From positions 4,114-68,113 of the forward strand of contig JAGGVJ010000040.1 of NCBI GenBank assembly GCA_021158055.1: a stretch of 64,000 nt of DNA, given 5' to 3'. The notes beneath the pieces are model-generated. The model had not been told where the DNA came from and searched no databases. It saw nothing but the letters and a program-made list of their open reading frames with translations. The DNA is from Candidatus Iainarchaeum sp. (lineage in GTDB: Archaea > Iainarchaeota > Iainarchaeia > JAGGVJ01). A program made the position numbers and the translations under genes. This document shows, one piece after another, positions 1,654-5,387 of this stretch. Position 1 is the stretch's first letter; every line of letters begins with the position of its first letter.

Positions 1654-2640
1654 TTATCTTGCGGACCTTGCCATTCTTTCAAGAGCATTTTTTCTTGAAA
1701 TCGAAAATGATTGCGGGTCGTTTTTGGAAACCCTTATTATTTCGTTTGCCAATGCTTCCGAGGCGGTTGTCTTGCTTTTGAATGATTCTGAAAATCCTGC
1801 CAAAGCAATGTTTTTTATTGCCTCGTCAACTCTTCGGAGCGGCGCAACATCAACGCTTTGCTGCCGGCTTATCCCTCCGAATCTTACCACAGTTATGTCT
1901 TCCCTCGGTCCTGCGTTTTCGATTGCGTCAACGTAAACCTGTATCGGGTTGATTTTTGTTTTTGCGTAAATCATGTCAAAGGCACTTTCCACAATAAGTA
2001 TTGCTTTGAGTTTTTTGCCTGTGTTGTTTCTTCCGCGGATATATTTTCCTTTCAGTTTCCTTTTTCCCTGTCCGCTTCTCATGACTTTGTTGACAAGCCT
2101 TTCGACAATGTTGAGTTTTGCTTTCCGAAATTGCTTGTCGCCTGTGTACCTGCCGTGAGTGTGCGGGATAACAACGCTGTCAAGACCGACGTAATTTTGA
2201 AGGCTTACATCGTGAACATGCACTTCTGAAAAATCGTATTTGTGAAAGAGCCTTGAAGTAAATGCAAATTCAGCTGTTTTTTCGCTCGGTTGCACGTCGT
2301 CATGTGACTCAACTGGTTTTTTTGAAGGTTCTTTTGAAACCTCTGACTTGTCTTTGGTTTCGCCTGCTTTTTTTTCCGCGGCTTTACTGGCATCGGGCTT
2401 GTTTTTACCAGCTTCTTTCGCTGGTGCTTTGCCGGCGGATTGTTTTACTGTTGATTCGCTGGCTTTTGTCTTGGCTTCCAATTCCTGTTTCACTTCCGGC
2501 TTCTCCTTTACTTCCGGCTTTGAATCTTCCGCCATGCTTTCCCCGGCTTCCGGCTTCTCCTTTACTTCCGGCTTTGGCTTTTCTTCTTTTGTTTCTTTTG
2601 TTTTTTTCTCAGCCTTGTCTTCTTTTAACTGTTCAGCCAT
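1654..2640 (-). CDS. rps7: 30S ribosomal protein S7 (uS7) with ~125-aa K/E/P-rich N-terminal extension
   Basis: 328-aa ORF. The C-terminal ~200 aa (FHKYDFSEVHVHDVSLQNYVGL...VRFGGISRQQSVDVAPLRRVDEAIKNIALAGF...) are uS7-like. The N-terminal part is low-complexity KPEVKEK/KAEKK repeats. The start lies 5 bp from the S12 stop. Confidence 0.85.
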   Translation of the reverse strand: MAEQLKEDKAEKKTKETKEEKPKPEVKEKPEAGESMAEDSKPEVKEKPEVKQELEAKTKASESTVKQSAGKAPAKEAGKNKPDASKAAEKKAGETKDKSEVSKEPSKKPVESHDDVQPSEKTAEFAFTSRLFHKYDFSEVHVHDVSLQNYVGLDSVVIPHTHGRYTGDKQFRKAKLNIVERLVNKVMRSGQGKRKLKGKYIRGRNNTGKKLKAILIVESAFDMIYAKTKINPIQVYVDAIENAGPREDITVVRFGGISRQQSVDVAPLRRVDEAIKNIALAGFSESFKSKTTASEALANEIIRVSKNDPQSFSISRKNALERMARSAR

Positions 2641-2644
2641 AATT

Positions 2645-3070
2645 TCACCTTCTTGCCTTCTGCTTCTTACCCTTGAGCACTGCGTCCAAAGACACGTCGT
2701 TTACTTTACAGACACTCCATTTGACTGTCGGGATGTCTCCTTTCGGACCCCCTTGTGCGCCACCGATTCCTTCGAGCGTGACTTCGTCGTGTTCGTCAAT
2801 CTGCTGGATTGCCTTGTCTTTCGGCGCAAAAGCAGTTACTTGAATTCCATTTTTTATAAGCTGCACCCTGACGCACTTTCGAAGAGCGGAGTTCGGTTGT
2901 TTTGCTTCAACAACTGTTTTTTCAATAACTATTCCCCGCGCTTGCGGTGCTCCACGGAATGGATCTTTCTTTTCCTTAATCCTCAACGCCCTGTTTTTAT
3001 ATTTCGGGGACTTCCATTTCCATTTTTTCCTGTTCAGTTTAAGTTTTTTTGCTGCAAACTCACCCGGCAT
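2645..3070 (-). CDS. rps12: 30S ribosomal protein S12 (uS12)
   Basis: 141 aa. Conserved uS12 region [27 protein letters not shown]. Sits immediately upstream of S7 in the operon. Confidence 0.9.
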
Positions 3071-3153
3071 TATTATTCACCTGTTAAATTTTTTATTCAA
3101 CCACTGTTGTTTTTTAATATTTATTTTTTTAATGTTTTTTTGATTTTATTATT

Positions 3154-3621
3154 TCATTGCATTATCCAATTATCATGACTTGGTGCTCTCATTTGTTGCA
3201 ACCTTATATCGCTTATATTGTGGTGTCTTAAAAGCAGTTCTTTTGCTTTTTTTATCCTGCTCCCGTTTTTTCCAATTGCTTGCGCCCTTTCTGTTGATTT
3301 AAGGAACACATTGGCTACTTTTTCACCGCTTGATTCTTTTACGCTGATTTTAGCCAATTCAGCCGGAGCCAAAAGGTTTTTTATCATTTCCTCTGCGTTT
3401 GGCGAGTATTCAAAAATCAAAACGTTTGGGTTGTTTAATTTTTCCCTGACTCTTCTTATCTTAACGCCACCCTTCCCTATTACATTGCCTGCTTCGCCTT
3501 TGTTTACCACAAAAACAAGCGCGTCGTCAAACCTAACACAGTCCTTTGGAAAAATACCTGTTATGTCCCTGAAAAGAGAAATCAGCTTGATTGAATCATT
3601 TTCAAGCTTCAATATTTTCAC
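3154..3621 (-). CDS. nusA: Archaeal transcription termination/antitermination factor NusA (two KH domains)
   Basis: 155 aa with two KH GxxG motifs (NVIGKGGVKIRRVREKL and AQAIGKNGSRIKKAKEL). Lies between L30e and S12, as in archaeal rpo operons. Confidence 0.85.
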   Translation of the reverse strand: MKILKLENDSIKLISLFRDITGIFPKDCVRFDDALVFVVNKGEAGNVIGKGGVKIRRVREKLNNPNVLIFEYSPNAEEMIKNLLAPAELAKISVKESSGEKVANVFLKSTERAQAIGKNGSRIKKAKELLLRHHNISDIRLQQMRAPSHDNWIMQ

Positions 3622-3940
3622 CTAAAAGATCAAGGACCTGTGAATTTCCTTCACTTATGACGTTCAAAACAGCTACAGAAAACGGTTTCCCGCAAGCAGA
3701 ACCTAATTCAACACCTGTGCCGTTAAAAACGTAAACAGAAATGTCACTTAATTTAGAATAATGCTCGATTCTTTCTTTTATATCTTTCGGGCAGTTTGAG
3801 GCAACTATGACCATTTTCAAAGACCCTGTTTTTATTTCCTGCACTGTTTTTTTTGAACCGAAAACAACTTTTCCGGTGTCAACTGCTCTTCTGATGGCTT
3901 TTTTTTCATCAATGACTTTTGTTTCAGCCATGTTAATCAC
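3602..3940 (-). CDS. rpl30e: 50S ribosomal protein L30e
   Basis: 112 aa. L30e/L7Ae-fold signature KMVIVASNCPKDIKERIEHYSKLSDISVYVFNGTGVELGSACGKPF. Lies downstream of rpoA''. The true start may be the internal M (MAETKV). Confidence 0.85.
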   Translation of the reverse strand: MINMAETKVIDEKKAIRRAVDTGKVVFGSKKTVQEIKTGSLKMVIVASNCPKDIKERIEHYSKLSDISVYVFNGTGVELGSACGKPFSVAVLNVISEGNSQVLDLLGENIEA

Positions 3941-3974
3941 TCCAAAATACTTTTTATGCTGTTGATTTCATTTA

Positions 3975-5387
3975 TCAACTTTTCATAACCAAATCAATTG
4001 TTCCTGTCCCAACTTTCACCGGCTGTCCGACAATAATATTTTCAGTTACTCCCGCAAGCTTTTCAACTTCGCCGTTAATGGCTGCGTCAAGCAGGTGTTT
4101 TATTGTGACTTCGTATGCAGCTCTTGCAAACACTGATTCTTTTTGCCCTGAAACTCCGGTCCGCCCGATTGCACGGACTTCCCCTGTCCGCGTCATCACA
4201 TCAGCCAAAAGCATCAGGTGCCTGACATTTACCCTGGCACTGCCCATTGCCGCAAGTATCTCGGAAATTATCGTGCTTCTTGCCGCTTCAATCCCGAAAA
4301 CTTCCTGCACTTCTTTTATGCTGTTGCTTGTTGTTCTTGTGCTGTCGACTTCTTCAACAACCAGCACGTCAACGAGATTTGAACCCCTTGTTTTTATGAT
4401 ATACTCGTCTCCTTCTTTTACTGCCATTGCCTTGTGAATCTCCTGAACTCCGCCTATCGGCATATTTTCAAGTTTTTTCGTGAGCCTTCTGGCATTTTTG
4501 AGGGTTTTCGCAGTTGGCACCAGTTTTATGAAGTTGTCTTCAAGAGTTGTTTTTGATCTGGTTGCTTTTTTGAGTTTTTTGACCACGTCTTCAACGGTCA
4601 TATCGTGGTGTGCGAGTTTTTTCTCGTTAAGCCTTATGCCGATGAATCTTTGTATAAAATCTTCTTCAATTTTTGCAACGTCTGCAAGTTTTGTTTCCTC
4701 AAGTTTTTTAGCAAGCTTTGACGCTTTTTCTTTGTCGCACGCATACTCTTTTTTGAGGTAAATAAACATAATGGGTGTGCTTGGCACGCGTCTTGCGTCA
4801 ACGATTTCTTCAAGCCTGTGAATTCCGCTTGAAACAGAAACTTCAGCTGAACCTGCAAAGTGAAAGGTTCGAAGTGTCAACTGAGTTCCGGGTTCTCCAA
4901 GAGACTGCGCCGTAACAACACCAACTGCTTCTCCTGCCTGTACTTTTGATTCTTCAAGCTGTTTGCTGACAAGTTCAAGGAGTTTTTTTGAATCACTGAC
5001 GTTCAAACCAAGTTCTTCGGTTACGTCTTTTGCATCATCAATCCATTTTTGAGTGACATTTATTTTCTTAAAAGGCTTTGTTCTCTTTAACAGCTTTTTT
5101 ACTTTTTTTACCGGCTCTGCTTCTTTTTCCGGTTTGGCTTCCTTTTCTGAATCCGCTTTCTTGGACTCTTTTACAGCTGTTTTCTTTTTTTCAGTCTTTT
5201 TGGCTTTGGCTGATTTCTTTTCCGCTTTTTTGCCAGAGGATTCAGGCAGATCTTTTTCTTCAACCGCAACAGCAACTTTGTTTTCAACCACGGCATCAAC
5301 CTTGCTTTCAACCACGGCATCAACCTTGCTTTCAACTACAGCATCAACTTTGTCCTTGTTTTCTTTATCTGAAACTTTGTCACTCAT
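3975..5387 (-). CDS. rpoA2: DNA-directed RNA polymerase subunit A'' (Rpo1C) with ~100-aa K/E-rich repeat-containing N-terminal extension
   Basis: 470 aa. Conserved core [32 protein letters not shown]. The start ATG overlaps the rpoA' stop (ATGA at 5384-5387). The N-terminus contains (KVDAVVES)x3 and lysine-rich low complexity. Confidence 0.9.

Follow-up and report, generated by a model that had tools for sequence, protein, structure and literature searches.

Long disordered tails are considered a largely eukaryotic feature of ribosomal proteins and polymerase subunits. The N-terminal extension of eukaryotic uS7 is variable, cross-links to eIF2alpha and affects initiation (PMC9958902). In the archaeal 30S subunit, uS7 lines the mRNA exit/Shine-Dalgarno (SD) chamber and gates the E site (PMC7005279). 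Among archaeal RNA polymerase (RNAP) subunits, Rpo13 carries 14 glutamates in its first 32 and 11 lysines in its last 22 residues, and deletion of its lysine-rich tail abolishes the binding of double-stranded DNA (PMC3479171). In this study, we analysed a 64-kb stretch of DNA from Candidatus Iainarchaeum sp. (GenBank assembly GCA_021158055.1, contig JAGGVJ010000040.1, positions 4,114 to 68,113; the window), in which ribosomal protein uS7 (rps7) and the RNAP subunit Rpo1C (rpoA'', here A'') are both encoded on the minus strand and both carry a long charged N-terminal tail. These tails are coding, derived from repeats, predicted to be disordered, recurrent across the lineage and fast-evolving. 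Features of the window given below lie on the minus strand unless stated otherwise.

Two charged tails on orthodox cores

The uS7 gene (1654..2640; 328 amino acids) encodes an ordinary core. Residues 158-328 match Pfam Ribosomal_S7 (PF00177) with 118.6 bits at a cut-off of 24, residues 131-328 align to positions 17-215 of the 215-residue Thermococcus uS7 (6skf_Ai; E = 2.8e-54), and the gene stands in the order S12-S7-EF2. Solved archaeal uS7 chains comprise 189-218 residues, and compared to these orthologues approximately 114-129 residues are added at the N-terminus. The same applies to A'' (3975..5387; 470 amino acids), which is encoded directly after A' in an rpoH-B-A'-A'' operon. Its residues 143-418 match Rpb1_5 (PF04998) with 161.5 bits, residues 111-469 align to positions 21-388 of Sulfolobus A'' with E = 1.4e-91, including the trigger-loop motif, and residue 96 aligns to residue 7 of a 397-residue solved Rpo1C. 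With solved A'' chains of 391-397 residues, the additional N-terminal sequence amounts to approximately 89-99 residues. Low-complexity N-terminal extensions on S7 and RpoA'' had been reported in an earlier sequence-only reading of this stretch, and the alignment with orthologues confirms them, both tails being longer than in any solved archaeal counterpart. The peptides quoted at the time are all present in the translations, with KPEVKEKPEVKQE and KAEKKTKETKEEK in S7 and KVDAVVES in A'', where it occurs in two exact copies.

The uS7 tail (residues 1-129, 2254..2640) is a neutral polyampholyte composed of 23% K, 19% E, 12% A, 9% S and 8% P. Charged residues make up 47% of it, 30 K+R facing 31 D+E, which results in a net charge of -1 and an isoelectric point (pI) of 6.06. 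The A'' tail (residues 1-99, 5091..5387) is bipolar, with an acidic part (residues 1-52, net -6) that contains a V/D/E repeat, followed by a lysine-rich basic block (residues 53-105, 5073..5231) with 42% K and a net charge of +14. The likeness to histone-like, K-rich nucleic-acid-binding tails that had been proposed for both extensions therefore applies to A'' 53-105 only, and neither to the uS7 tail (pI 6.1) nor to A'' 1-52.

The residues F, W, Y, I, L, M and C contribute only 5% to the uS7 tail and 3-5% across the two tails. In AlphaFold2 models, uS7 residues 1-130 have a predicted local distance difference test (pLDDT) score of 39-54 and no secondary structure, and A'' residues 41-91 score approximately 30, while a single helix is predicted with low confidence for A'' residues 3-40, over the repeat. 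The isolated uS7 tail has no Pfam match at E values up to 1, and the isolated A'' tail yielded sub-threshold noise only. Given the pLDDT values, the scarcity of hydrophobic residues and the lack of a Pfam domain, both tails are predicted to be intrinsically disordered low-complexity regions. The best of the sub-threshold matches in the A'' tail, to RPA43_OB (16 bits, cut-off 27.6), was rejected as a chance match to low-complexity sequence.

The internal DNA duplications noticed earlier were recovered as in-frame repeats. In the uS7 tail, Tandem Repeats Finder (TRF) identified an 18-nt period at 2492..2586, where KPEVKEKPE is encoded twice, and a 37-nt direct repeat (2493-2529 and 2547-2583) has copies of 92% identity that lie 54 nt apart. 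The A'' tail contains a 24-nt tandem repeat of 4.2 copies (5252..5353; TRF score 120, 84% matches) that encodes KVDAVVES, KVDAVVES, KVDAVVEN and KVAVAVEE. The DNA of uS7 and A'' is 100% identical in two ENA assemblies (ERZ23499370, ERZ23499350), one JGI assembly (3300016457) and one Logan assembly (SRR14000038; L082-L085), and the repeats are therefore not assembly artefacts. The identical operon was found in at least four different samples, with one copy on a 155.6-kb contig, indicating that the same strain recurs across datasets.

A fraction of at least 0.55 K+E within a 40-residue stretch is reached by only uS7 and A'' among approximately 47 open reading frames (ORFs) of the window. Similar tails on further ribosomal or RNAP subunits, the possibility of which had been raised, were not found within the extended operon: such a K+E segment is absent from its ten other informational proteins, namely RpoH, B'', B', A', eL30, NusA, uS12, aEF2, aEF1A and uS10.

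Translation of the tails

Six independent lines of evidence from the sequence indicate that both tails are translated. The in-frame codon-usage log-likelihood ratio (LLR) is +0.40 for the uS7 tail and +0.52 for the A'' tail, matching the cores (+0.37 and +0.42), and it is negative in all five other frames, ranging from -0.19 to -0.70 for the uS7 tail. A loss of coding signal upstream of the cores, which the sequence-only reading had named as the mark of wrongly placed starts, was thus not seen. Only 2 of 10,000 composition-matched shuffles of either tail were free of stops in frame, and the repeat periods determined by TRF, 18 and 24 nt, are both multiples of three. Both extensions begin at the boundary of the upstream gene, as had been stated: the uS7 ATG (2640) starts 5 nt past the final base of the uS12 stop codon (2645), and the start codon of A'' shares the sequence ATGA (5384-5387) with the stop codon of A'. 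The first ATGs of uS7 and A'' are each preceded, at a distance of 4 nt, by the SD sequence AGGTGA (for uS7, 2645..2650, overlapping the uS12 stop codon; for A'', 5392..5397, within the 3' end of rpoA'). The same hexamer precedes uS12 at a distance of 6 nt.

Start codons that were called too far upstream, with translation beginning near the cores and the preceding stretches being untranslated spacers that stayed open by chance, are very improbable as an explanation. It could be argued in their favour that uS7 begins at an internal methionine, Met36, in the NCBI record of this genome (P0001, 293 amino acids), which skips residues 1-35 (2536-2640), and that a GTG is present at residue 116, the only start near the uS7 core. 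However, neither M36 nor GTG116 is preceded by an SD-like match, other internal candidate starts in uS7 and A'' have SD matches of 4 nt at most, and the coding LLR of the tails equals that of the cores. Since residues 33 and 128 of A'' have no start codon between them, translation of the core entails that of the K-rich block. The frames of the tails also stay open in relatives despite the turnover of their sequence. In the closest of them (L001/P0002, uS7 75% identical), uS7 begins with MAETKETKTEKKTEEAKEEK, compared to MAEQLKEDKAEKKTKETKEEK here, and the N-terminal peptide is shared. In several relatives, among them locus L006, the first ATG is the sole start codon upstream of the conserved core, and in L002 the only alternative there is a GTG 13 codons in. 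The gene callers on the four independent assemblies (ENA twice, JGI, Logan) report 328 and 470 amino acids. The earlier statement that the starts are unlikely to be mis-called is borne out by the SD sequences, the full in-frame coding signal and the tails in relatives, and the NCBI start of uS7 is probably mis-set in the public annotation.

A role at the RNA level instead of the protein level can be considered as well, given that in the str operon of E. coli S7 binds the rpsL-rpsG intercistronic RNA and thereby represses translation. The 391 nt from the S12 stop to the uS7 core could in principle form a long intercistronic leader for the autoregulation of uS7. We regard this as extremely unlikely, since the tail regions show no excess of folding (z = -1.37 for 2250-2650 and z = -0.33 for 5085-5395) and no Rfam match, and the protein-coding signal is strong. 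The reading of the tails as structured RNA was rejected on the basis of these folding scores and the Rfam result.

Spread, turnover and possible roles

The nearest GTDB species representatives are metagenome-assembled genomes (MAGs) of "Candidatus Iainarchaeum" with uS7 identities of 50-58%, which places the host, as judged by sequence, among the deep-branching DPANN archaea (Diapherotrites/Iainarchaeia). We surveyed 80 GTDB loci by measuring from the stop of the upstream gene to the conserved core, independently of gene callers; tail lengths were taken from the first in-frame ATG, by which a few loci in which the gap is large but the called tail short (e.g., A'' of L004 and L010) may be undercounted, as their start may be a GTG or TTG. 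The A'' outputs of the Micrarchaeota-type loci L046, L049, L051 and L054 were artefacts of split high-scoring segment pairs, and L046 and L049, with impossible lengths, were filtered out. An A'' tail of at least 25 residues is present in 19 of 32 Iainarchaeia-like genomes versus 0 of 12 Micrarchaeota, and a uS7 tail of at least 30 residues in 8 of 44 Iainarchaeia-like genomes and in both Hadarchaeota. Most genomes with A'' tails lack a uS7 tail. The assessment of the tails as unusual for archaea therefore holds in comparison with cultured archaea, but not within the class. Among protein homologues, 52 of the best 120 for uS7 have at least 235 residues, with N-termini of 40-108 residues rich in K, E, A, P, V and T, and in many of these long homologues the extension ends in a semi-conserved KPIFVKKKSQFSDYK junction. 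For A'', 34 of 199 homologues have at least 405 residues, nearly all of them with lysine-rich N-termini. Both tails described here are the longest among the Iainarchaeia-like loci (uS7, 129 residues versus a maximum of 92 in loci and 108 in protein hits; A'', 99 versus a maximum of 84). In a clade with uS7 tails (L003, L006, L013, L022), A'' too bears a long tail, which is strongly acidic.

The core of A'' (3975-5090) reached best identities of 49-51% in libraries of 5.8 billion sequences and 1.84 billion representatives. For uS7 of the same genome, the 75% identical relative is available (L001), whose contig ends before rpoA''. The identical 470-residue A'' was not returned by two word-indexed searches or by exhaustive HMMER, though it is called on the ENA, JGI and Logan contigs. 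A metagenome scan with the A'' protein gave 81 pattern matches but no relative, and a second scan with an alignment of uS7 and P0002, for which the patterns were drawn from low-complexity tail peptides, gave no relative among 600 matches.

Tails on the same or on other informational proteins were also observed in further lineages. Of the ORFs concerned in Altiarchaeota-type loci (L030 202-1113, L031 5604-6590, L034 5145-5978, L036 5625-6437, L038 5580-6389 and L040 3671-4642), those that were tested (L031 and L036) encode uS3 (KH_2 and Ribosomal_S3_C) with a K/E-rich low-complexity tail of 70-100 residues at the C-terminus. In three archaeal MAG lineages, eL30 (Pfam L7Ae family) carries a lysine-rich C-terminal tail of 50-90 residues (L044 8986-9546, L054 8780-9271, L068 8910-9416). 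The uS7 of Hadarchaeota (L043, approximately 9845-10597, and L052) has an N-terminal tail of 52-61 residues with opposite polarity, consisting of a basic start (MAKRKRKAKGKKK...) followed by poly-Glu/Ala-Glu. N-terminal extensions of 80-120 residues are found on A'' of Thermoplasmatota-type MAGs (P0126, P0146, P0167, P0181, P0183, P0201, P0204). These open with a conserved MAKKDT.NAL..RG....A..(I/V)A.AG(F/Y), which is probably folded and looks helix-hairpin-helix-like, and continue with a K-rich linker; two of them had no significant match in Pfam.

The uS7 tail evolves faster than its core. In the comparison with L001, alignable codons of the tail show 47% identity, 51 of the 129 columns contain gaps, and the ratio of non-synonymous to synonymous substitution rates (dN/dS) is approximately 0.39, a value that is biased downward because the alignment relied on similarity between amino acids. 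For the core, the identity is 85% and the dN/dS approximately 0.064. In the A'' repeat, units 1 and 2 are separated by three changes, all of them synonymous, and units 2 and 3 by a single base. Among relatives, tail lengths range from 19 to 99 residues for A'' and from 0 to 129 for uS7. The net charge of the A'' tails varies from -27 (L006) to +19 (L029) and that of the uS7 tails from -5 to +6 in the loci, with a median of +4 among protein hits. What is conserved in the tails is hydrophilicity, a high charge density and disorder, and not the sequence, the length or the sign of the charge. A conserved, clade-wide electrostatic role in nucleic-acid binding is not supported, given this range of A'' charges.

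Such a lack of conservation could mean that the tails are neutral baggage, i.e. translated but functionless by-products of slippage in the A-rich 5' ends of coding sequences in a DPANN genome of small population size, tolerated at exposed N-termini and merely kept harmless by the exclusion of hydrophobic residues and stops. Unconserved sequence, length and net charge, the variable presence of the tails and the near-identity of A'' units 2 and 3, which points to ongoing expansion, all agree with this explanation. The occurrence of tails on different proteins (uS3, eL30) in other DPANN lineages would likewise point to a tendency of mutation in general and not to a requirement of the individual protein. 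On the other hand, the dN/dS of the tail is below 1, the changes between A'' units 1 and 2 are exclusively synonymous, one uS7 clade retains the motif KPIFVKKKSQFSDYK at the junction of tail and core, A'' tails persist across most of the class, and only two of the 12 informational proteins of the operon are tailed. We consider neutrality a serious but doubtful possibility. If it applies, our finding is chiefly a note on annotation and evolution.

With moderate confidence, we favour the explanation that fast-evolving, disordered, translated tails have grown by in-frame duplication at the exposed N-termini of an orthodox uS7 and an orthodox Rpo1C, and that the K-rich block of A'' plausibly acts as a non-specific DNA tether. 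Short A-rich units of 18 and 24 nt would duplicate in tandem or slip in frame, by which tails arise and keep changing. The two N-termini appear to tolerate additions, presumably since they are exposed to solvent on the 30S head and on the RNAP surface, and the constraint would be weak and act on composition (hydrophilic, highly charged, free of aromatic residues), leaving sequence, length and charge sign free. At the N-terminus of A'' the Rpo1 chain is naturally broken, and other lineages add 30-120 residues at this point; the N-terminus of uS7 bears a variable extension in eukaryotes as well. By analogy, residues 53-105 of A'' most likely represent a non-specific nucleic-acid tether that would provide the polymerase with additional contacts to DNA or RNA. 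This role is proposed because the acidic-then-lysine layout of the A'' tail mirrors that of Rpo13, in which non-specific binding of double-stranded DNA depends on the K-rich tail (PMC3479171). The acidic (KVDAVVES)n part may mask the K-rich block or keep it soluble. The uS7 tail would most likely form a hydrated, flexible brush or spacer that leaves the 30S head near the side of the mRNA exit and the E site, and it could modulate the access of mRNA or initiation factors in a manner analogous to the eukaryotic uS7 extension. Tight binding of RNA by the uS7 tail is unlikely.

Several observations weigh against this favoured explanation. Given that the charge of A'' tails ranges from strongly negative to strongly positive in relatives, DNA binding is not a conserved property of the tail, and it may not be selected in this genome either. 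Many close relatives have no uS7 tail at all, so that it is dispensable for ribosome function. The dN/dS of the uS7 tail has to be read with the downward bias mentioned above, and translation of the tails is what we infer for an uncultured organism.

The presence of both tails in one operon raises the question of whether they cooperate as multivalent disordered regions that couple or co-condense polymerase and ribosome in a cell with a reduced set of factors. Condensation driven by lysine and RNA is reportedly documented in general, and the clade with uS7 tails also bears the long acidic A'' tails. This co-occurrence is, however, explained by the shared ancestry of a single clade, most A''-tailed genomes have no uS7 tail, and the uS7 tail is net neutral, which makes cooperation quite unlikely. 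We also regard it as unlikely that Iainarchaeia convergently evolved functional multivalent tails of eukaryotic style (on Rpo1C and uS7, and on uS3 and eL30 in sister lineages) that tether the polymerase, concentrate RNAP and ribosomes together and offset a reduced factor set. If true, such tails would provide a prokaryotic precedent for the regulation of transcription and translation via disordered regions.

The archaeal class described here repeatedly adds 30-130 charged, repeat-derived residues to the same two N-termini and, under the favoured explanation, offers a tractable case of disordered regions that are born by in-frame slippage in reduced genomes. The series of natural tails with net charges from -27 to +19 could be used to test the DNA affinity of the polymerase or effects on 30S initiation. 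The annotation of uS7 from M36, which lacks an SD sequence, furthermore flags a systematic problem in the annotation of start codons.

Setting of the locus and comparison with known systems

A transcription-translation operon of archaeal type fills the first 12 kb of the window. According to ORFs and Pfam matches, its order is rpoH, rpoB'' (9798-11291), rpoB' (7990-9801), rpoA' (Rpo1N; 5384..7993), rpoA'', eL30 (3602-3940), NusA (3154-3621), uS12 (2645..3070), uS7 and aEF2; uS12, the upstream neighbour of uS7, has no added tail. Beyond this operon, Rfam identified four tRNA genes (15832-15936, 15975-16083, 16984-17083 and 28492-28581) of 90-109 nt, long enough for introns, while ARAGORN in default mode found no tRNA in the whole window. 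Three giant ORFs of 1933, 2079 and 2765 amino acids are located at 22563-28364, 38389-44628 and 45260-53557; the N-termini of the second and third clearly resemble each other (...SDFYASMEDKYYSVLDFLDGKGVPVYSVVDAMESKN versus ...NDFYYGVENKFFGLMDFVDDHGIPVYRVIDALEDKNIP), and these two are probably paralogues. On the plus strand, an ORF of 751 amino acids (58475-60730) is rich in K and R in an N-terminal segment (residues 7-42) and gave a sub-threshold Pfam match only (Wtap, 19.9 bits, cut-off 35).

The closest described counterpart of the uS7 tail is the extension of eukaryotic uS7 (Rps5), such as the negatively charged one of yeast, which is attached to the same protein at the same terminus. This extension is species-variable and largely irregular, it sits at the head of the 40S subunit close to the exit channel and to eIF2alpha, and its truncation affects initiation and fidelity (PMC9958902). 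In contrast to the approximately 20-60 residues of the eukaryotic extension, the uS7 tail described here has approximately 114-129 residues and is a repeat-built K/E polyampholyte. The two show no similarity in sequence: alignments with eukaryotic uS7 begin no earlier than query residues 112-130 (126 for the 225-residue yeast chain), and the tails are therefore not homologous. The eukaryote-like character noted earlier does not extend to common descent, and the uS7 tail was acquired independently in a DPANN lineage.

For A'', the nearest parallel in charge layout is Sulfolobus Rpo13, with a Glu-rich N-terminus, a Lys-rich C-terminus and tails that are disordered in all structures; the A'' tail is likewise acidic (-6) and then basic (+14). 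However, Rpo13 forms a small subunit of its own, which has a helix-turn-helix core and occurs only in some Crenarchaeota, whereas the A'' module is part of the Rpo1C chain, at its N-terminus. Neither AlphaFold2 nor Pfam revealed an Rpo13-like folded core or a helix-turn-helix in the A'' tail, and the likeness is one of mechanism only, by analogy. The A'' tails of other Iainarchaeia and the A'' module of Thermoplasmatota share the attachment point directly after the A' stop and a charged low-complexity composition, but the (KVDAVVES)n repeat is not found in other Iainarchaeia-like A'' tails, and the conserved opening segment of the Thermoplasmatota (MAKKDT.NAL..RG...) is absent from the A'' described here.

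Literature searches returned no account of comparable tails, neither for archaeal uS7 or Rpo1C nor for DPANN, a result that, with incomplete coverage, amounts to absence of evidence only. The habit of adding tails is common in this archaeal class and apparently undescribed. According to the passage in PMC11764897 that cites them, the H1-like tails of mosquito RpS6 and RpL23a are K-rich low-complexity additions to conserved ribosomal proteins which, like the tails described here, are lineage-specific and evolved independently. They differ in being eukaryotic, strongly basic and attached to other proteins, while the uS7 tail is net neutral and an H1-like composition is reached only in A'' 53-105. 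With these similarities and differences, the tails of this archaeon belong with the lineage-specific, charged low-complexity extensions on conserved ribosomal proteins.

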